Origin: Oceanotoga teriensis
Lineage (GTDB): Bacteria > Thermotogota > Thermotogae > Petrotogales > Petrotogaceae
Reading direction: 5' to 3'
Length of the DNA stretch: 64,000 bases
Assembly: GCF_003148465.1 (NCBI RefSeq)
Contig: NZ_QGGI01000003.1
Location: 91,940 to 155,939 of the forward strand
In this document: positions 9,860-61,158 of the stretch, piece by piece
How positions within the stretch are numbered: the stretch's first letter is position 1
Layout of the letters: every line of letters starts with the position of its first letter
Notes under the pieces: generated by a model
What the model saw: only the letters and a program-made list of their open reading frames with translations
Told to the model about the DNA's origin: nothing
The model's database searches: none
Program-made: the position numbers and the translations under genes

Positions 9860-10030
9860 CCTCCTTTTCTCAGCTATTAGGCAGATTACTCTCACCAAAG
9901 CTAAAGAAAAGGATATCTCTACTTTGGTGACAGCGGACGCGATGTCGAACCGCAGCCATTTAAGGGCATTTCGTCACAGGGCAACGTCCCATCCCTGAGC
10001 ACTAAAACGCATGACATCTACTCTGCCACA
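9860..10030 (-). ncRNA. THF (tetrahydrofolate) riboswitch; aptamer about 9926-10030 plus an RBS-sequestering expression platform
   Basis: GC-rich island on the minus strand that matches the E. siraeum THF aptamer almost block for block (AGUAGAUG...GCGUUUUAGUG...GGGAUGGG...ACGAA...GCGG...CAUCGCGUCCGCU); downstream UCCUUUUCU can pair with GAGAAAAGGAGG at the folT RBS. Confidence 0.8.
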
Positions 10031-21215: not shown

Positions 21216-21351
21216 AATATATTATAATTGCCAGAAAATAATTAGTTTTTTTATATATTTTTAAAGTTTTTTAAGGTCTATAAGGTATTATGTTCTGAAT
21301 GTTTTATATAAAATATGATAGAATATAATAAAAAAATGGGAGGTAGAAATA

Positions 21352-22628
21352 TGAAAAAATTTAGTATGTTTCTTTTGATTATTAGTTTTTTTGTGATATC
21401 TTTTTCTAGTGTGACTGATTTTATACCTAATGATTCCAAAGCTACTTTTTATATAAAGAATCTATCTAATACTTATGAAAGTTTGAAAACAGTTCCTACT
21501 GTGGGGAGTTTTTTATCTGATCCAATAAATGCAGAAATGTATGTATCAAATTTTGTTGAAAGTTTTTTAGCATCTATGGGTATAGAACCAAAGGATTTTT
21601 TTGAATCGTTAAAGACTGATATGGCTATTTTTATACAGGAACCAGAAGAAAATACTTATATTTTTGGGATTATTTTTGGTGAACTTAAAAATCCTAATAA
21701 ATTTTATGATTCTGTATCCAAAATAATAGAGCCTTTATCAGAATCCGGTATAAGTTTTAATCCAATATATAAAGAAATTTCAGGCAAAAAATATTTGATT
21801 ATGGTTCAAGATAAATCAATTTATGAAGACAGCAAGAAGGGAGATATTAAATTTTATGAACAATATGAAAATGGAATCTATTTTAATATAAATTCTTCAG
21901 ATTTGAAAAATACAGGTTTTGCTTATATAAAAGATAACTATTTAATTGGAACTTCTACAGGAAATTTAAATGAAGATTCTGTAAATCAAAAATATTTAAA
22001 AGATGTTTCGGATTATAATTTTCTTGGTACTGCTTTTCTCGCATCTGGTTTTTTACCTAAAGATATAAATTCGATAAAAGAAATTATAAGTATAGTAGCC
22101 GAACCATCTATTGTTGAAAATATATTGAAGTCTTCAAATGGATTTGAAGTTAATTCTAATATAGATATAAATATAGAAGAGAACATAAAAATTTCAAATA
22201 CCAGTTATGTAAAAATTGATACGAGCACACAATTAAAAAATATAGAACCTATAATGAAGGAAAATAAATTAAAATATAATTATTTGGATGAAAACCATAT
22301 GGAATTTGAAATAAAAATAGATGAAAATATATCAAATACTGAAATGAAAGCTTTAAAATATAATATGTGGAAAAAATCCGATAATATTTTTATTTCAGAA
22401 GATAATGAAGAAAATTTAAATAAAAAACTTCAAAATTCTATTAAACTTTCAGAAAACAAAACATATGAAGAATTATCAAAAAAAATAGGTACAGCAAACT
22501 TAGTATTAGCTTTTGTAGATTTTTCTAAATTCTTTGAAAAATTTGGAGCTTCAGAAAATTTTGGTTTTTTATTAAATGTGAATTATTTGGGAAATGGAGC
22601 TATGAAGGCTGATTTTGTGTTAAAATAA
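21352..22628 (+). CDS. hypothetical secreted protein
   Basis: GGGAGG RBS; signal peptide MKKFSMFLLIISFFVISFSS. Confidence 0.5.
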
Positions 22629-22688
22629 TTGATTAAACCAAAAAATCTTAACTTGACAAAATTAAAATAAAATTATAAAATCTATAAT

Positions 22689-22750
22689 GCACAATGAAGT
22701 GTTAAAAGCGATGAAGCTATGCGAATAATAATTCGCATAGCTTTTTTTTA
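22689..22750 (+). promoter_or_regulatory. ANTAR-type dual hairpin (P1 and P2) overlapping an intrinsic terminator, eutG leader
   Basis: P1 GCAC-AAUGAA-GUGU; P2 AGC-GAUGAA-GCU, whose 3' arm is the 5' arm of the terminator GCUAUGCGAAUAAUAAUUCGCAUAGC followed by U8. Confidence 0.65.
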
Positions 22751-22765
22751 TTTATGAGGAGGGAC

Positions 22766-23926
22766 ATGATGAATTATTTCGGTTTAAGAACAGAAATTTA
22801 TTCTGGAGAAAATAGTTTAAATAAATTAAATGAAATCAATTTAAAAAAAATATTTATAGTTACAGATCCTTTTATGGTAAAGTCTGGAATGATTGATAAA
22901 ATAACTGAAAGTTTAAAAAAAGATATTGAATATAAAATATTTTCACAAATAGTTCCTGACCCACCATTAGAAGTTATAATGAAAGGTGTAAATGAGCTTA
23001 ATGAATTTGAATCTGAAGGAATAATTGCACTCGGTGGAGGCTCTGCTATAGATGCTGCAAAAGCAATAAGTTGTTTTTTTAATAGAATAAATGAAAAAAA
23101 GAGTAATATAAAAAATAAAACACTTTATTTTATAGCAATACCTACTACTTCTGGAACTGGTTCTGAAGTTACAAGTTTTTCAGTTATAACTGATAAAGAA
23201 AAAAATATAAAATATCCACTCATATCAGATGAATTATTGCCTAATATGGCTATTTTAGATCCGGAATTAGTTAAATCTGTACCCGATTTTATAACAGCTG
23301 ATACTGGAATGGATGTTTTAACACATGCTATAGAAGCTTATGTTTCTACTGAAGCTAATGATTTTACAGATGCTCTTTCGGAAAAAGCAATAAAAATAGT
23401 ATTTGAATATTTAAAAAGAGCATATAAAAATGGAAATGATACTCAAGCAAGAATAAAAATGCATAATGCTTCATGTATTGCAGGTATTGCTTTTAACAAT
23501 GTTTCATTGGGATTGAATCATGGAATGGCACATATTCTTGGAGGGAAATTTCATATTCCACATGGTAGAGCAAATGCTATATTATTACCTTATGTTATAG
23601 AATATAATGCTGAATTAGGAAATTATTTGGATAAAAAAACATCAACAACTGCAAAAAGATATGCCAATATAGCAAAAATACTTGGATTATCTTGTTCAAA
23701 TACTAAAATAGGCGTAAAAAATTTAATTTTTGAGATAAATAAATTAAAAAAAGAATTGAATATACCAAATTCAATAAAAGAAGTTGGTATAAAAGAAAAT
23801 GATTTTGATCAAGCTTTAGACTTTTTATCACAAAAAGCAATTGAAGACAGATGTACTGAAACTAATCCAAGAAAGCCAAAGGTAGAAGAAATAAAAACTT
23901 TATTTAAAAAAGTATATAATGGATAA
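22766..23926 (+). CDS. eutG: iron-containing alcohol dehydrogenase (ethanolamine utilisation)
   Basis: Fe-ADH motifs (GGGSAID, HGxAH); location in the eut locus. Confidence 0.8.
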   Translation: MMNYFGLRTEIYSGENSLNKLNEINLKKIFIVTDPFMVKSGMIDKITESLKKDIEYKIFSQIVPDPPLEVIMKGVNELNEFESEGIIALGGGSAIDAAKAISCFFNRINEKKSNIKNKTLYFIAIPTTSGTGSEVTSFSVITDKEKNIKYPLISDELLPNMAILDPELVKSVPDFITADTGMDVLTHAIEAYVSTEANDFTDALSEKAIKIVFEYLKRAYKNGNDTQARIKMHNASCIAGIAFNNVSLGLNHGMAHILGGKFHIPHGRANAILLPYVIEYNAELGNYLDKKTSTTAKRYANIAKILGLSCSNTKIGVKNLIFEINKLKKELNIPNSIKEVGIKENDFDQALDFLSQKAIEDRCTETNPRKPKVEEIKTLFKKVYNG

Positions 23927-23988: not shown

Positions 23989-24018
23989 TTGACAAATTAC
24001 ATGATAATAATGTAAAAT
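23989..24018 (+). promoter_or_regulatory. sigma70-like promoter (TTGACA, 18-nt spacer, TGTAAAAT)
   Basis: consensus -35 and an extended -10 upstream of the eutS leader. Confidence 0.5.
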
Positions 24019-24033
24019 AAAAAGAGAAAAAAT

Positions 24034-24122
24034 GCACAATGGAGTGTGTTTATTAAAAATAAGCAAAGAAGCTTCTAAAAGAATACATTATTTCATATTC
24101 TTTAGAAGCTATTATTTTTTTA
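24034..24122 (+). promoter_or_regulatory. ANTAR-type dual hairpin overlapping a terminator, eutS leader
   Basis: P1 GCAC-AAUGGA-GUGU; P2 AGC-AAAGAA-GCU; P2 3' arm lies inside the terminator AGCUUCUAAAAGAAUA...UAUUCUUUAGAAGCU followed by a U-run. Confidence 0.7.
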
Positions 24123-24946: not shown

Positions 24947-25360
24947 ATGAAAGAAAAAATAGTAATAGCTGATGATGAGCCTATTACAAGGCAGGATTTA
25001 CGAGAAATCCTTGAAATAGCCGGATACAATGTTGTAGCGGATGCTTCTGATGGGTTTGATGCTGTAGAACTATGTAGAAAATTTAAACCTGATCTCGTTT
25101 TAATGGACATAAAAATGCCTTTGTTGGATGGCTTAAATGCTTCAAAAATAATAACTTCAGAAGGATTAGCAGGTGGGGTTATATTATTAACAGCCTATAG
25201 TGATGAAGATTTTATAGCAAAAGCCAAAAAATCAGGTGTTATAGGTTACTTAGTTAAGCCTATTGATGAAAGATCTTTAATACCATCCATAGAAATATCT
25301 TTAAGTAAATGTGTTGAAATAAATAGAATGAAAGAAGATATAAAAAAAGCCAATAAAAAA
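24947..25360 (+). pseudogene. eutV: eutV 5' fragment (receiver domain of the ANTAR response regulator), truncated by an IS insertion
   Basis: CheY-like receiver (DDEP...D54-like...K); the reading frame ends in a TGA supplied by the first bases of the IS. Confidence 0.8.
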
Positions 25361-25402
25361 TGAACTGACCCATGTCAAGTAGACACAAAAATTAATAAAA
25401 AA

Positions 25403-26221
25403 TTATATACAATTGGATGCTTGGTTTCTGAACTCAACAGGAGCCATGCATCCAAGTTTTTTCTGGAATCTACGATTGTTATAAAAATCAATGTATTTGT
25501 GAATAGCTTTCTCTAATTCTTCAAGAGAATTAAACTTCTTACCATAAAACATCTCAGATTTAAGAGTACCAAAAAATCCTTCCATAGGGCCATTATCTAT
25601 ACATTTACCAACACGAGACATACTTTGTGTCATTTCAGATTCTTCTAGTTTAGTTTTAAATACTCTACCAGTATATTGAAATCCCCTGTCACTATGAAAT
25701 ATTGGTTTAGCTTCTGGATATTTTTCTATTGCTTTATCGAACATTTTGAATACAAGTCTGTTGTCGTTTCTATATGATGTTTCATATACCACTATATCGT
25801 TACCATGTAGATCCATTACAGGACTTAAATAAAGTTTTCTTGTATCTGTTGGTATTGAAAACTCAGTTACATCTGTCAACCATTTTTCATTTGGGTTTTC
25901 TGTACTGAAATCTCTGGATAGTATGTTCTCTTTTGTGTATTCAGGTTTTGTCCTCTTACGATTAATTTTCTTTCTTCTTATCCTGGAAGATACTCCTAAA
26001 AGTTTCATCAGTCTGTGTATATAACCTTCAGAATATTCTTTTTGGTTTAATCTGTTTATGTACATGGTCATTCTTCTGTATCCAAGTATCCCGTCATATG
26101 TAGCATGGTATTCTTGAATTAGATTACATATAGTTTCATCTTGAATTTCTTTTTGTGGTTTTTCCCTTTTTTGATTTTTGTAGTATGAACTTCTGGATAT
26201 TTTCAACACATCACACAACAT
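25403..26221 (-). CDS. IS3-family transposase OrfB (rve integrase core; made as OrfAB by a -1 frameshift)
   Basis: LCDVLKISRSSYYK start typical of IS3/IS150 OrfB; DDE core (HSDRG...). Confidence 0.8.
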   Translation of the reverse strand: MLCDVLKISRSSYYKNQKREKPQKEIQDETICNLIQEYHATYDGILGYRRMTMYINRLNQKEYSEGYIHRLMKLLGVSSRIRRKKINRKRTKPEYTKENILSRDFSTENPNEKWLTDVTEFSIPTDTRKLYLSPVMDLHGNDIVVYETSYRNDNRLVFKMFDKAIEKYPEAKPIFHSDRGFQYTGRVFKTKLEESEMTQSMSRVGKCIDNGPMEGFFGTLKSEMFYGKKFNSLEELEKAIHKYIDFYNNRRFQKKLGCMAPVEFRNQASNCI

Positions 26222-26280
26222 TTTAACTGTGTATCCTTTGGTTTTGTAGTAATCTACCGTTTTGTATTCACCATATTGTT

Positions 26281-26985
26281 TTACTCTCGAGATTCTCTTT
26301 CTTTTTGGAATTCCTCTTTTTTTTTATGTACTTCTAACTCAAAAGCTAATCTTTTGTTTTTAGCTCTTTCTCTTTCCAATTCAAGTTTTAATTTCTGATT
26401 TTCTGTCAGTTCATCTTCTTTTATGTCAGTTTTAGATTTAGGACCACGTTTCCCATATTTGAGTGATTCAGGACCTTTGTTTAAATACATCTTTGTCCAT
26501 TTATATACTGAAGAATATTTTATTGCATGTTTATCTGCAGCTTCTTTGTAGTTCATATCGTTGTTTATTACCCATTTAACTATTTCTAATCTTTCTTTGT
26601 ATGTAGTTTTTCTTGACTCCATGGTATAGACATCTCCTTTCGGATCATAATCTTTCAATTCTATACCATTATAATACTTATTTATCCAATTTTTTATTAT
26701 TGAAACATGAATATCATATTTTACTGATAAATCCATGGCTGAAAATTTTCCATCTATGTATTTTTTAACTACAAATAGCTTGAATTCCTTACTGTATGAT
26801 TTATTTCTTTTTGTTATTTCAAATACTTTTTCTCCATGTTGTATATATCTGTGATACCAATCACTTAAAGATGATTTATCACATCCCACTGATTTTGATA
26901 TACTTTTGAAACTTCCTTTTCCTGCTATGTAATCTTTACATGCTTTTACCTTTGTTTCTTTACTATATTTCCCTTTTCTCGACAT
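26281..26985 (-). CDS. IS3-family transposase OrfA (HTH)
   Basis: DNA-binding HTH and leucine-zipper region; ends inside the A AAA AAA AAG frameshift window. Confidence 0.8.
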   Translation of the reverse strand: MSRKGKYSKETKVKACKDYIAGKGSFKSISKSVGCDKSSLSDWYHRYIQHGEKVFEITKRNKSYSKEFKLFVVKKYIDGKFSAMDLSVKYDIHVSIIKNWINKYYNGIELKDYDPKGDVYTMESRKTTYKERLEIVKWVINNDMNYKEAADKHAIKYSSVYKWTKMYLNKGPESLKYGKRGPKSKTDIKEDELTENQKLKLELERERAKNKRLAFELEVHKKKEEFQKERESRE

Positions 26986-27055
26986 AATAAATATACCTCC
27001 AAAGCAGCTTTGTAATTTTTATTAATTACGTGTCTACTTTGGAGGTATCATATCA

Positions 27056-27220
27056 AAACTTGAAGATAGAAAAATTATAGAAAAAGCAAAGGGTATACTA
27101 ATGGAAAAAGAAAATTTATCTGAAAAAACTGCTTTTGAAAGAATAAGAACATTAAGTATGAATAAAAGATGTTCTATGAAAGATATAGCAGAGGCTATTG
27201 TGATAAGTTATGAAGAGTAA
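27056..27220 (+). pseudogene. eutV: eutV 3' fragment (ANTAR domain)
   Basis: KLEDRKIIEKAKGILMEKENLSEKTAFERIRTLSMNKRCSMKDIAEAIV is a canonical ANTAR motif; it is in frame with the 5' fragment once the IS and one AAA copy are removed. Confidence 0.8.
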
Positions 27221-28616
27221 AATATGTGAATTATGTAAAAAATATACAGACCTTGATGAAGAAGATATAAAAATATTAGAAAACTATTCTTTATGTATGG
27301 ATGCAGTAGCTGATATTGAAAATGCTGATGTATTTATAGATAGTTTGACAAGAGATAATGATGAAGCTATAGTGATAGCCCAAGCTAAGCCTAAAAATAC
27401 AAAATCAATGTATAACAGATCTGTTATTGGTGAAATAGCTTATAGAAAAAATGAACCAGCAGTTTTAAGGACTTTACAACTTGGAATATCGACCAAAGAT
27501 ATAAAAGCACTAACTCAAGAAGAAGTTAGTGTAAGGCAAACAGTAGCCCCAATAAAAAATAAAGATAAAGTAATAGGAGTTTTAATCATAGAAAAAGATA
27601 TAACAGAGAAAATAAATAAAGATAAATATATGGAAGTATTGGAACAGAGTTATGAAAAGCTTACAGATACTTTGTTGTATATGACTGAAAATGATGGTAC
27701 TATAACAAATCATATTGATGAAATAATAATGATGTTTGATGAAGAGGGAATACTAAAATTTGCCAATTCAGTAGCTGAAGAATTATATTTAAAACTTGGG
27801 TACAGAGATAACCTTATAGGTATGAAATATGATAATGTTTCTCTTGATGATTCGAAGTTTAAAGATATAATAAATGAAGGTTGTATACAAGAAAGTGAGA
27901 TAAATTATGGGAAATATTTTTTTAATATAAAAAAAATAATATCCAGTAGAGAATCTTTCAAATTAATTCTAATGATTAAGGATATAACGGATATGAAAGA
28001 AAAAGAAAAAGAACTCATACTAAAATCTGTAGCAATAAAAGAAATACATCATAGAGTAAAAAATAATCTTCAAACTATTGCCAGTTTATTGAGACTTCAA
28101 TCAAGGAGATGTGTTAGCGAAGAAGCTAAAAATGCATTAAATGAAAGTATGAATAGAATTTTAAGCATATCTGCTACTCATGAAATACTTTCTCAAGAAG
28201 GTCTTGATGAACTTTATATATTTGAGGTTATAAAGAACATAAAAACAAGTATTATGCGGGCTTACAGAAATCCGAATGCAGAACTTATAATAAATTTAAT
28301 GGGTGATGATTTCAAAATAAGCTCTGATAAATCAACATCTATAGCTCTCATAATAAATGAATTACTTCAAAATTGTATAAAATATGCTTTTATAGGGAAA
28401 GAAAAAGGACAAATAGATATAAAAATTGAAAGAGGTGATTTATATTCTACAATATCAATTATAGATAATGGTATTGGTTTTGATATAAATCATATGAAAA
28501 AAAATAGTCTTGGTTTTACAATAGTAGAGAGTCTTGTCAAAGACAAACTTTATGGTAATATAAAAATAAATTCTGATAAAAATGGAACGAAAGTTTTGTT
28601 TGATTTTAAAAATTAA
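27210..28616 (+). CDS. eutW: sensor histidine kinase EutW
   Basis: HHRVKNNLQ H-box and an HATPase_c C-terminus; overlaps the eutV 3' end as in Firmicutes eut loci. Confidence 0.8.
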   Translation: MKSKICELCKKYTDLDEEDIKILENYSLCMDAVADIENADVFIDSLTRDNDEAIVIAQAKPKNTKSMYNRSVIGEIAYRKNEPAVLRTLQLGISTKDIKALTQEEVSVRQTVAPIKNKDKVIGVLIIEKDITEKINKDKYMEVLEQSYEKLTDTLLYMTENDGTITNHIDEIIMMFDEEGILKFANSVAEELYLKLGYRDNLIGMKYDNVSLDDSKFKDIINEGCIQESEINYGKYFFNIKKIISSRESFKLILMIKDITDMKEKEKELILKSVAIKEIHHRVKNNLQTIASLLRLQSRRCVSEEAKNALNESMNRILSISATHEILSQEGLDELYIFEVIKNIKTSIMRAYRNPNAELIINLMGDDFKISSDKSTSIALIINELLQNCIKYAFIGKEKGQIDIKIERGDLYSTISIIDNGIGFDINHMKKNSLGFTIVESLVKDKLYGNIKINSDKNGTKVLFDFKN

Positions 28617-28625
28617 ATAATAAAA

Positions 28626-28695
28626 TACAATGATGTATTAAAAAAAGCAATGAGGCTTAAAACTATTTTTTATAGTTTTAAGCCTTTTTATTTTT
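28626..28695 (+). promoter_or_regulatory. ANTAR-type dual hairpin overlapping a terminator, eutA leader
   Basis: P1 UAC-AAUGAU-GUA; P2 AGC-AAUGAG-GCU; terminator AGGCUUAAAACUAU-UUUUU-AUAGUUUUAAGCCU followed by a U-run. Confidence 0.7.
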
Positions 28696-28714
28696 CAAAA
28701 GAAGGTGTCGTTGA

Positions 28715-30145
28715 ATGAAAGAAAAGTTTTTAAGTGCAGGTATTGATATAGGAACTTCTACAACGCAACTTGTTTTTAGTGAAATAACTATAGAAAATAT
28801 GGCTTCTGATTTTACAGTTCCAAGAATAAAAATAGTAGATAAAGAAATAGTTTATAGAAGTAATATATACTTTACACCTTTGATAAATCAAAATGAAATT
28901 GATGGTGAAAAGGTAAGAGAAATAGTTGAAATTGAATATAAAAAAGCTGGATATGAATCAGAAAATATAAAAACTGGTGCAGTTATTATAACTGGAGAAA
29001 CAGCAAGGAAAAAAAATGCAAATGAAGTTTTACAAAATCTTAGTGGATTAGCAGGAGATTTTGTAGTTGCGACAGCTGGACCAGATTTAGAATCAATAAT
29101 TGCAGCTAAAGGTGCTGGAGCAGATATTTTATCAGAGAAAAAAAGAAATACAGTTGTAAATCTCGATATAGGTGGAGGAACTACAAATTTAGCTGCTTTT
29201 CATGATGGAATTCTTTTAGATACTGGATGTCTTGATATAGGTGGAAGATTGATTAAATATGATAATTATAAAAAAATTACATATATTTCACCTAAGTTAC
29301 AAAAAATAATAGAAAATGAAAATATAAATTTAAAAGTTGGACAAGAGATAGATTTAATAGAATTAAAAAAAATAATAAATATTATGGTTGATTTACTTTA
29401 TCAATCTATAAACAAAAAAGAAATGAGTTCGTACTATGACTTTATTTTAACTAATAAAGGAATAAAACAAGATATAAATGTTGATTGTATAACCTTTTCT
29501 GGAGGTGTTGCTGATTATGTATACAATCAAAACTATGAAGATCTTTTTAAATATGGAGATATTGGAATTATATTGGGGAAAGCTATAAAAGAATCTAATT
29601 TATTTAAAAATATAGATATTGGACAAGCAGTTGAAACGATAAGAGCAACTGTTGTAGGAGCTGGAACACATACAACTGATATATCTGGAAGTACAATAAC
29701 ATATTCTGAGCAACTTTTACCATTAAAAAATGTGCCTATATTAAAACTTGAAAAACATGAAGAAATTTTAGATAATAAAGAATTTATATCTGTTATAAAT
29801 AAGAAAATTTCTTGGTTTGAAAATGAAAATTCTCTTCAACAAATAGCTATAGCGATAAATGGAAAAGAATATACAAAATTTGTAGATATACAAAATCTTG
29901 CACAAAATCTAATAGATGGAAGTAAAAAATTATTAGATTTGGGCTATCCATTAATAGTAATAGTAGAAAATGATATAGCAAAAGTATTAGGTCAAACTCT
30001 AAATAGCAAATTAAATTATAAAAAAGAATTAATTTGTATAGATGGAATAAAGGTTGAAAACGGAGATTATATAGATATTGGTAAACCTTTGGCCGAAGGT
30101 AAAGTATTGCCTGTTGTTATAAAAACTTTAGTTTTTAATTCATAA
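28715..30145 (+). CDS. eutA: ethanolamine ammonia-lyase reactivase EutA
   Basis: 476 aa; ASKHA-fold start GIDIGTSTT. Confidence 0.85.
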
Positions 30146-35140: not shown

Positions 35141-35425
35141 ATGCCAAGTTCAAATGCATTAGGTATGGTAGAAACAAGAGGATTGGTAGGTTCAATAGAG
35201 GCAGCAGATGCAATGGTAAAAGCTGCTAATGTAACATTAGTAGGTAAAGAACATGTTGGTGGTGGATTAGTAACTGTAATGGTAAGAGGTGATGTAGGAG
35301 CCGTTAAAGCAGCAACTGATGCAGGAGCAGCAGCAGCAGAAAGAGTTGGGGAATTAGTATCTGTACATGTAATTCCAAGGCCACATTCTGAAGTAGACGC
35401 AATATTACCTAAAGTACAAGGTTAA
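35141..35425 (+). CDS. eutM: BMC-H shell protein EutM/PduA type
   Basis: 94 aa canonical BMC domain ([26 protein letters not shown]). Confidence 0.85.
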
Positions 35426-35485
35426 TAATTATAAGGCTGTCTCAAACAAAAAATTGAGACAGCCATTTTATAAGGATGTGAAATA

Positions 35486-36862: not shown

Positions 36863-37522
36863 GTGGGGAAAAACTTGAATACTAAAGAATTAGTTGAATT
36901 AATAACTGTTGAGGTAATTAAAAGATTAAAATTAAAAAATAAAAAGAAATTATTGGTTTTAAATGAAGGATTTAAAAGTTTAGATGATTTATTAACAGAT
37001 TATGAAATAATTCATTATTCTGAAGATCTTGAATTAAAAGATTTTGATGAAATTTATTTAGGAAAAATGGATTTAAAGATGATTTCACATTTGGCCAATG
37101 GAATAATAATAAATGAAATAGAAGATTTAATTTTAAAATCTCTTCTGAAGGATAAAAAAATATTTTTATTTTCTGAAGATATAGAATTAAAAAAATTCAA
37201 TAATACTAAAAACACAAATTTATATAAAATTTTTAATCAAAATATTGAAAATATAAAAAATATCGGAATAATAATATTAGATGAAAAAATAGATATAAAA
37301 GAAAATATAAACATTAATACAAAATATAAAAATGAAGTTAAAGAAGAAGATTCAATAATTTTAAAAAATAAATTAATAACAGAAAATGAGTTAAAAAAAT
37401 TAGGATTAAAAAATGGATCGAAAATAAATATTGGAAATAAATCCATAATAACTCCTCTTGCAAAAGATTATATAAGAATACATAAAATAAGACTGACTAA
37501 AAGTCAGGAGGAAAAAATATGA
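36863..37522 (+). CDS. hypothetical eut-locus protein
   Basis: K/N/I-rich; its C-terminal 45 aa are homologous to the N-terminus of the adjacent adenosyltransferase. Confidence 0.4.
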   Translation: MGKNLNTKELVELITVEVIKRLKLKNKKKLLVLNEGFKSLDDLLTDYEIIHYSEDLELKDFDEIYLGKMDLKMISHLANGIIINEIEDLILKSLLKDKKIFLFSEDIELKKFNNTKNTNLYKIFNQNIENIKNIGIIILDEKIDIKENININTKYKNEVKEEDSIILKNKLITENELKKLGLKNGSKINIGNKSIITPLAKDYIRIHKIRLTKSQEEKI

Positions 37523-39450: not shown

Positions 39451-39900
39451 ATGGAAATAAATAAAGAAATTATAGAAAATATAGTTAGAGAAATTTTAAC
39501 AGAAGGATTAAAAAATAATTCAGAAATAAAGAAAAATATAGAACCTTTGTCAGGAATTCTTTCTGTTGATATGAATACAGTTAAACCAGAAAAATTTGAT
39601 ACTGGAAAAGAAGGAGATCAAGTTTATTTAAAAGACATATTAACATTAGAAGAAAGTCCAAGACTTGGAGCAGGTTTAATGGAAATGAAAGAGACAACAT
39701 TCGATTGGACTTTAGAATATGATGAGGTTGATTATATAATAGAAGGTACACTTGAAATCAATATAAACGGCAAAAAAGTTAAGGCCAGTGCCGGAAATGT
39801 AATATTTATACCTAAAGGATCATCAATACAATTTTGTGTGCCAGATTACGCCAAATTTCTATATGTTACCTATCCAGCAGATTGGGCATCTCAAAAGTAA
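39451..39900 (+). CDS. eutQ: EutQ (cupin-fold ethanolamine utilisation protein)
   Basis: 149 aa; cupin C-terminus; last gene of the island. Confidence 0.7.
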   Translation: MEINKEIIENIVREILTEGLKNNSEIKKNIEPLSGILSVDMNTVKPEKFDTGKEGDQVYLKDILTLEESPRLGAGLMEMKETTFDWTLEYDEVDYIIEGTLEININGKKVKASAGNVIFIPKGSSIQFCVPDYAKFLYVTYPADWASQK

Positions 39901-56471: not shown

Positions 56472-56546
56472 ATGGCAGCCCCACGGGGAATCGAACCCCG
56501 ACTCTCGGACTGAGAATCCGATGGACTGGCCGTTATCCTATGGGGC
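56472..56546 (-). tRNA. tRNA-Glu (anticodon CUC), CCA encoded
   Basis: manual cloverleaf: acceptor GGCCCCA/UGGGGCU, anticodon stem UCGGA/UCCGA, loop UUCUCAG, T-arm CGGGG-UUCGAUU-CCCCG, discriminator G, CCA. Confidence 0.8.
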
Positions 56547-56622
56547 CATAACAAGAGATATTATACCATTCTTTTTTAGTTTTGTAAATACTTTTTTTGA
56601 AAACTTTATGCAAAAATAATAT

Positions 56623-61002: not shown

Positions 61003-61114
61003 AATTCTTTTTGGGACTACACGTGGCTGGGTCCTGCGCAACGAAAACTAGTGAAACTGGTCAGGCCCGGAAGGGAGCAGCCATAAGCTTTGTCTTTTGT
61101 GTGCCGCAGGGAAG
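61003..61114 (+). ncRNA. ffs: signal recognition particle RNA (small bacterial SRP RNA / 4.5S)
   Basis: GC-rich island; conserved domain IV sequence GUCAGGCCCGGAAGGGAGCAGCC; terminal helix GUGGCUG/CAGCCAC; ends in a U-run. Confidence 0.75.
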
Positions 61115-61158
61115 CTCAGCCACCTTTTTTTATATATTTTATTATGAGGGGGAATAAA

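Follow-up and report, generated by a model that had tools for sequence, protein, structure and literature searches.

The spacer between eutW and eutA of Oceanotoga teriensis very probably carries an ANTAR-type transcription attenuator, the pre-eutA checkpoint of an ethanolamine-utilisation locus controlled by EutVW. The anatomy of this element, the mutual exclusivity of its second hairpin and its terminator, their energetics, the conservation and covariation of the element in related loci and its gene neighbourhood are established here; binding of EutV and dependence on ethanolamine in this organism are presumed by homology to Enterococcus faecalis. Two sister elements precede eutG and eutS in the same 64-kb stretch of O. 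teriensis DNA, which is referred to as the window throughout, and the gene for the cognate regulator is split by an insertion sequence. The features are collected in Table 1.

Table 1. Features of the eut locus and structured RNAs of the window (window coordinates)
Feature	Position	Strand	Description and evidence
THF riboswitch	9929-10027	-	Rfam, 61 bits
eutG-leader sister element	22687-22750	+	P1 GCAC-AAUGAA-GUGU; P2 AGC-GAUGAA-GCU (22707-22718)
eutS-leader sister element	24030-24122	+	P1 GCAC-AAUGGA-GUGU; P2 AGC-AAAGAA-GCU (24062-24073)
eutV 5' fragment	24947-25360	+	138 aa, receiver domain only (PF00072, 6e-28)
IS3-family insertion sequence	25362-27055	-	IS3 transposase, NF033516, 3e-81
eutV 3' fragment	27056-27220	+	ANTAR domain coding (PF03861, 7e-22)
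eutW sensor histidine kinase	27210-28616	+	GAF_PdtaS, HisKA_2, HATPase; PdtaS/EutW-type
P1 'recruitment' hairpin	28624-28639	+	AAUAC-AAUGAU-GUAUU, 5 bp; direct reading
A-rich linker	28640-28644	+	5 nt with extended stems; 8 nt (28638-28645) with 3-bp stems
P2 'antitermination' hairpin	28645-28658	+	AAGC-AAUGAG-GCUU, 4 bp; direct reading
Intrinsic terminator stem-loop	28652-28686	+	15 bp, 5-nt loop; terminator scan
Terminator U-tract	28687-28695	+	UUUAUUUUU; direct reading and terminator scan
eutA ribosome-binding site and start	28701-28717	+	GAAGGUG and ATG (28715); direct reading
eutA	28715-30145	+	NF007992, 726 bits; first gene released by readthrough
tRNA	56476-56547	-	Rfam
Small SRP RNA	61025-61124	+	Rfam, 72.9 bits

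Anatomy and energetics of the pre-eutA element

The eutW-eutA spacer (28617-28714) measures 98 nt and holds, on direct reading, P1, P2 and the terminator. The original prediction had placed exactly these parts, with the terminator following P2 and ending in a U-run, between the two genes, and direct reading together with a terminator scan confirms the arrangement. In its minimal form, P1 consists of tac (28626-28628), the loop aatgat (28629-28634) and gta (28635-28637); the hexaloop AAUGAU has A1 and G4, and the closing pairs are A-U/C-G. Minimal P2 is composed of agc (28646-28648), the loop aatgag (28649-28654) and gct (28655-28657), with A1 and G4 both present in the hexaloop AAUGAG. A 13-nt box at 28646-28658 (AGCAAUGAGGCUU / AGCAATGAGGCTT) matches AGCAANGRRGCUY with 0 mismatches. 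The terminator has the sequence GAGGCUUAAAACUAU-UUUUU-AUAGUUUUAAGCCUU, and its 5' arm takes up the last three loop bases and the entire 3' stem of P2 (overlap 28652-28658). Since P2 and the terminator share these bases, the two structures are mutually exclusive.

The computed energies at 37 C are -2.1 kcal/mol for P1, -2.9 for P2, -5.0 for P1 and P2 together and -19.0 for the terminator; at 55 C, the values are +0.4 kcal/mol for P1, -0.7 for P2 and -12.6 for the terminator. As the terminator is far more stable than P1 and P2, termination is expected to be the default state, and the small hairpins would need a protein to hold them. The spacer 28617-28714 as a whole folds at -24.4 kcal/mol (z = -4.15), a stability reached by 0 of 200 dinucleotide shuffles, and the element has a GC content of 24%. 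None of P1, P2 and the terminator involves the ribosome-binding site or the ATG of eutA, as they end at least 6 nt 5' of the former. Rfam returned no family at the gathering score for the pre-eutA site, and with E up to 10 over 28550-28760 it gave sub-threshold noise only.

Minimum free energy (MFE) and centroid folds of the spacer contain a further predicted helix, in which the P1 loop region (about 28628-28635) pairs with 28706-28713 over 7-8 bp, G-U pairs included. The latter stretch is located between the Shine-Dalgarno sequence of eutA and its ATG.

Ramesh et al. 2012 (PMC3369931) describe the substrates of ANTAR proteins as a pair of hairpins, each with a stem of 3 bp or more and a hexaloop carrying A1 and G4. 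The same description includes sequence-conserved A-U/C-G closing pairs in P1 and an AGCAANGRRGCUY box at the terminator's 5' base; in E. faecalis the linker measures 5-12 nt, and induction suffers when it is 3 or 14 nt long (PMC3369931). The Oceanotoga element has stems of 5 and 4 bp, A1/G4 loops, a linker of 5 or 8 nt, mutually exclusive P2 and terminator, the 13-nt box, the P1 closing pairs and a homologous, covarying counterpart at the same position elsewhere. A coding sequence for an ANTAR domain (PF03861) and a receiver domain (PF00072) lies immediately upstream, beside eutW; that this eutV is split by an insertion sequence affects function in the strain, not the identity of the RNA. The earlier view that this is a real element of the ANTAR/EutV type is thus upheld, as it shows every sequence and structure feature of PMC3369931 and 15 other taxa carry it.

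Sister elements and chance expectation

Both sister elements end in a terminator followed by a U-run, bulged in the eutS leader (24070-24111) and located at 22713-22744 in the eutG leader. Promoter-like sequences are present in the eutS leader (TTGACA-18-TAAAAT, 23989-24018) as well as in the eutG leader (TTGACA-17-TAAAAT, 22653-22681). The P2 loop of the eutG leader, GAUGAA, has G at position 1 instead of the canonical A, so that the claim of A1/G4 loops at all three sites holds with this one exception. G1 is also found in the P2 loop at the pre-eutA sites of Clostridium estertheticum, Hydrogenoanaerobacterium and Oceanirhabdus; given these variants, position 1 of L2 seems to tolerate a purine.

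The eutG open reading frame has its first ATG (22754) directly 3' of the terminator U-run and 5' of a ribosome-binding site, GAGGAGGG (22757-22763). The true start of eutG is probably one of the ATGs at about 22766-22769, in agreement with the 385-aa gene calls in relatives.

Chance occurrence was assessed with a generic motif of two 3-bp stems, loops ANNGNN and RNNGNN and a linker of 2-20, with 300 dinucleotide shuffles as the control. This dual-hexaloop motif is not enriched in the 64-kb window (9 occurrences vs 6.8 ± 2.6 in shuffles) and therefore cannot alone support the claim. Together with an overlapping terminator, it was found twice (three times with one bulge allowed) vs 0.06 expected. 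The expectation attached to the original prediction, namely that the shared features should be more frequent here than in shuffled sequence, consequently fails for the bare motif and holds for the motif with its terminator. The pattern common to the three sites, ACAATGNNGT-N2-20-AGCNNNGNNGCT, has 3 matches in the window vs 0 in 100 shuffles, whereas the 13-nt box with 1 mismatch permitted is not discriminating alone (2 matches vs 1.1 expected in the window).

A leave-out covariance model, seeded with the eutW-eutA spacers of 15 other taxa, without any sequence of the window, and run with filters off, ranks 28623-28660 first in the 64 kb (42.7 bits, E 8e-8). The next matches are the eutS leader (24032-24076, 27.9 bits) and the eutG leader (22687-22721, 24.1 bits); the best match outside eut reaches 14.7 bits, and neither a fourth site nor an EutX-like decoy was found in the 64-kb window. 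The window thus contains exactly three sites, all on the sense strand of the eut locus. The three checkpoints proposed earlier by analogy with Enterococcus are recovered precisely before eutG, eutS and eutA, but the analogy is incomplete: E. faecalis has four sites, before eutP, eutG, eutS and eutA (PMC3369931). The Oceanotoga locus has three because eutP directly follows eutS, without a separate upstream eutP.

Conservation and covariation across eut loci

Loci of the eut type were gathered via EutW homologues. A contig search with an EutW alignment was dominated by actinobacterial PdtaS loci, 7 of the 80 loci listed being of the eut type with an adjacent eutA, while a metagenome contig search with a single EutW protein gave 3 short loci only. 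The element is present in all 15 other eutW-eutA spacers examined. They come from Clostridium tunisiense, C. estertheticum, C. tetani, C. autoethanogenum, Caloramator, Natronincola, Sedimentibacter, Oceanirhabdus, Hydrogenoanaerobacterium, three Bacillota or Clostridiales, Cetobacterium, a Geobacteraceae MAG and Desulfobulbus; these taxa belong to three phyla, and both helices covary across Clostridia, Fusobacteriota and Desulfobacterota. In these relatives, P1 has 4-10 bp and a hexaloop (A/G)NNGNN, P2 usually pairs GGC or AGC with GCC or GCU in its stem, and a hairpin resembling a terminator is located downstream.

In a MAFFT alignment of 18 sequences (A4), 91.8% of the cells are in standard pairs, a signal that is partly circular because the seed hairpins were chosen by requiring stems; the circularity is eased by the use of the MAFFT alignment and by a control with slid partners, in which pairing falls to 21-42% when the partners are moved by 1-3 columns. 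Changes on both sides, i.e., compensatory ones, occur in 7 of the 9 pairs of this alignment, and its covariation score of 0.49 (vs 0.24 ± 0.03 shuffled) is reached in 0 of 500 shuffles. In P1, 98.9% of the cells are paired and compensatory changes affect 4 of the 5 pairs; of the 18 sequences, 17 have CG and 15 have AU as closing pairs. The third pair of P2 shows compensatory changes from GC to AU in the relatives.

Searching 16 loci with the model gave 32 matches, each of them on the sense (+) strand. Where genes were called, the matches are located 5' of eutG, eutS or eutA, and those not used as seeds 5' of eutS, eutG or another gene of the locus. The alignment of the 32 sites (A6) is 95.4% paired, the alignment having been fitted to the model. 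A strict MFE check for a clean overlapping terminator accepted 20 of the 32 related matches and overlooked terminators that can be seen by eye, while a looser check accepted 32 of 32 and is too permissive a criterion. Within Oceanotoga, the window and its four relatives at about 99.5% identity have pre-eutA RNA elements that are 100% identical.

Interruption of eutV by an insertion sequence

The eutV gene spans 24947-27220 of the window and is interrupted, between the receiver and ANTAR domains of its product, by a 1.7-kb IS3-family element. Its 5' open frame ends 2 codons into the insertion sequence, and the resulting 138-aa EutV remnant is an exact match to O. teriensis PWJ95938.1, deposited as 'response regulator receiver and ANTAR domain protein' even though it has no ANTAR domain. 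The insertion sequence has TG...CA ends and contains orfA (26985-26281) and orfB (26221-25403); the junction alignment reveals a clean insertion between K138 and L139 with an AAA target duplication. Together, the truncated EutV and the proteins of the insertion sequence exactly match O. teriensis PWJ95938.1-PWJ95940.1. The transposase proteins are found on 7-9 contigs, hence the element is multicopy.

The 3' fragment of eutV has an in-frame stop upstream, at 27023-27025, and its first in-frame start is M153 (27101). Due to this stop and the absence of a start before M153, a complete ANTAR module with R142, K143 and K147 is untranslatable. Expression of the ANTAR fragment from the junction of the insertion sequence was considered as a candidate and rejected on these grounds.

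Four contigs at about 99.5% nucleotide identity, including the complete genome CP107547.1, are free of the insertion sequence and contain an uninterrupted eutV of 191 aa. Oceanotoga sp. DSM 15011 and three other near-identical contigs have an intact eutV together with the identical RNA element. The intact Oceanotoga EutV aligns over its full length with EutV of E. faecalis (6WSH, E 8e-62), and R142, K143, K147 and M172 are conserved in it. In-frame deletions of eutV in E. faecalis abolish induction (PMC3369931). As eutV is split by the insertion sequence, the prediction for O. teriensis is that all three attenuators are locked in termination and that the locus is uninducible, unless another ANTAR protein encoded elsewhere substitutes for EutV; the prediction ignores cross-talk from an ANTAR protein outside the window as well as basal readthrough.

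Locus context and proposed mechanism

Downstream of eutA follow eutB, eutC, eutL and the remainder of the locus, which extends to eutQ at 39900. C. tetani and C. estertheticum share the gene order eutG-S-P-V-W-A-B-C-L with Oceanotoga. A protein from Oceanotoga sp. DSM 15011 is 100% identical to EutW, whose next-best homologues are clostridial, with at most 64% identity. The Rfam scan revealed no cobalamin (AdoCbl) riboswitch near the eut locus or in the 64-kb window; the only matches at the gathering level in the window are the THF riboswitch, the small SRP RNA and the tRNA listed in Table 1.

Three further features of the region were recorded. Inside the eut operon, a strong, GC-rich perfect hairpin (35435-35464; 11 bp, 6 of them GC pairs) separates a BMC shell gene (35141-35425) from eutT (35486). 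Neither strand offers it a good U-tract, the covariance model gives no match there, and the hairpin may serve in mRNA processing or stability or act as a weak internal terminator. An open reading frame of 437 aa (21315-22628, + strand), located between yajC and the eutG leader and also present in the DSM 15011 relatives, gives no Pfam or NCBIfam match. Another, of 219 aa (36863-37522, + strand), is found inside the eut operon between pduL and eutN and gives no Pfam match.

In the E. faecalis system, P1 recruits the EutV dimer, which next moves to P2 (Walshe et al. 2022, PMC8934654). Of the bases, only the flipped G4 is contacted specifically, and binding depends on R142, K143, K147 and M172 (PMC8934654). 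On this model, transcripts from the eutS promoter of Oceanotoga would run through eutS-eutP-eutV-eutW. By default, the terminator (28652-28686) and its U-tract would form and RNA polymerase would stop before eutA. On sensing ethanolamine, EutW would phosphorylate EutV, leading to dimerisation; the EutV dimer would then bind the hexaloop of P1 and subsequently that of P2, with the flipped-out G4 as the base-specific contact. With P2 held closed, GAG-GCUU would be denied to the 5' arm of the terminator, and transcription could read through into eutABC and the shell and enzyme genes.

Relation to known ANTAR systems

The closest characterised counterpart is the eut locus of E. faecalis, which shares the dual A1/G4 hexaloops, the AC/GU closing pairs of P1, the 13-nt box at the 5' base of the terminator, the sites before eutG, eutS and eutA and an adjacent eutV-eutW pair. 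It differs from the Oceanotoga locus by its fourth site; moreover, the host is here a member of Thermotogota and eutV is disrupted by an insertion sequence in the O. teriensis genome. Neither an AdoCbl riboswitch nor an EutX-like decoy was detected in the 64-kb Oceanotoga window, in contrast to Enterococcus and Listeria. Clostridial loci of the EUT2 type (C. tetani, C. estertheticum, C. autoethanogenum and others) have the identical order eutG-eutS-eutP-eutV-eutW-eutA, covariance-model matches before eutG, eutS and eutA, and EutW proteins 55-64% identical to that of Oceanotoga. Their P2 stems are commonly GGC/GCC, whereas Oceanotoga has AGC/GCU, and the Oceanotoga element as a whole is more AT-rich.

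NasR-nasF from Klebsiella and AmiR-amiE from Pseudomonas are similar in that P1 and P2 hexaloops compete with a terminator and are recognised by an ANTAR domain (PMC3369931). These systems respond to nitrate or amide, whereas the input in Oceanotoga would be ethanolamine via a histidine kinase; besides, they have a single leader, as opposed to several checkpoints per locus here, and occur in a different phylum. Actinobacterial ANTAR-target RNAs (PMC8164766) also contain the dual stem-loop recognition motif. They mostly overlap the ribosome-binding site or start codon and act on translation (PMC8164766), whereas the Oceanotoga element has a terminator and leaves the ribosome-binding site free.

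Alternative explanations

The spacer might hold nothing but a plain Rho-independent terminator that ends the eutS-P-V-W transcript, with the mini-hairpins arising by chance in AT-rich sequence and eutA transcribed from its own promoter. Such a reading would fit the lack of enrichment of generic dual-hexaloop motifs over shuffles, the thermodynamic weakness of P1 and P2 and the promoter-like hexamers inside eutW (e.g., 28426-28453). However, promoter-like matches show no excess (114 vs 127 ± 11 in shuffles), and the eutW stop is separated from P1 by 9 nt only. The conserved position of the hairpins and their compensatory changes in 15 other taxa, the score of 42.7 bits obtained with a model of other taxa and the exact match to AGCAANGRRGCUY make a plain terminator very unlikely. 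It is extremely unlikely that the element acts on translation by occluding the ribosome-binding site of eutA, in the manner of actinobacterial ANTAR RNAs: P1, P2 and the terminator all stop short of that site, and a canonical U-tract terminator overlaps P2, as in the characterised eut attenuators of E. faecalis (PMC3369931). If the predicted MFE fold forms, its helix joining the P1 loop region to the stretch that separates the Shine-Dalgarno sequence from the ATG (28706-28713) would favour a translational effect, and a bioRxiv report (10.1101/660928) describes actinobacterial ANTAR targets as overlapping start sites.

A different question is whether the attenuators are still opened in O. teriensis, by another ANTAR regulator or by an ANTAR fragment from the junction of the insertion sequence, so that the locus would not be silenced. 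A monomeric EutV construct starting at E140 keeps weak RNA binding in vitro (PMC8934654), and the 3' fragment of eutV encodes the protein from K138 onward. Yet the stop at 27023-27025 precedes this fragment and its first start, M153, lies downstream of R142, K143 and K147; antitermination in vivo requires dimerisation (PMC3369931, PMC8934654), and no other ANTAR match was found among the window ORFs examined. Continued opening in this strain is therefore considered improbable, and the preferred reading is that of EutV-dependent transcription attenuators predicted to be held in the terminating state.

Origin and implications

According to Sutter et al. 2021 (PMC8217296), no microcompartment locus other than the EUT2I locus of O. 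teriensis occurs in Thermotogae, and this locus was probably acquired recently from a Firmicute. The attenuators appear to have travelled with this microcompartment locus from Clostridia into a Thermotogota host. A literature search for ANTAR elements in Thermotogota found nothing relevant. On balance, the evidence favours, with some reservation, the view that these are the first ANTAR attenuators described in Thermotogota, which arrived with the transferred EUT2I locus and were orphaned by a multicopy IS3 element in eutV.

For annotation, the eutW-eutA spacer and the leaders of eutG and eutS are to be marked as EutV-dependent attenuators, and PWJ95938.1 as a truncated EutV disrupted by an insertion sequence. 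Knowledge of the ANTAR mechanism is unchanged. The element is mechanistically ordinary, and its host phylum and disrupted regulator make it mildly notable. If the proposed history is true, O. teriensis would be a natural eutV knock-out, in which the three terminators of a recently acquired organelle locus keep that locus switched off, while the system is still intact in a sister strain at 99.5% identity. O. teriensis (eutV::IS) and DSM 15011 (intact eutV) constitute a natural pair of mutant and wild type, with which the working of ANTAR antitermination in this lineage and the continued use of the sole microcompartment locus of Thermotogota could be tested.
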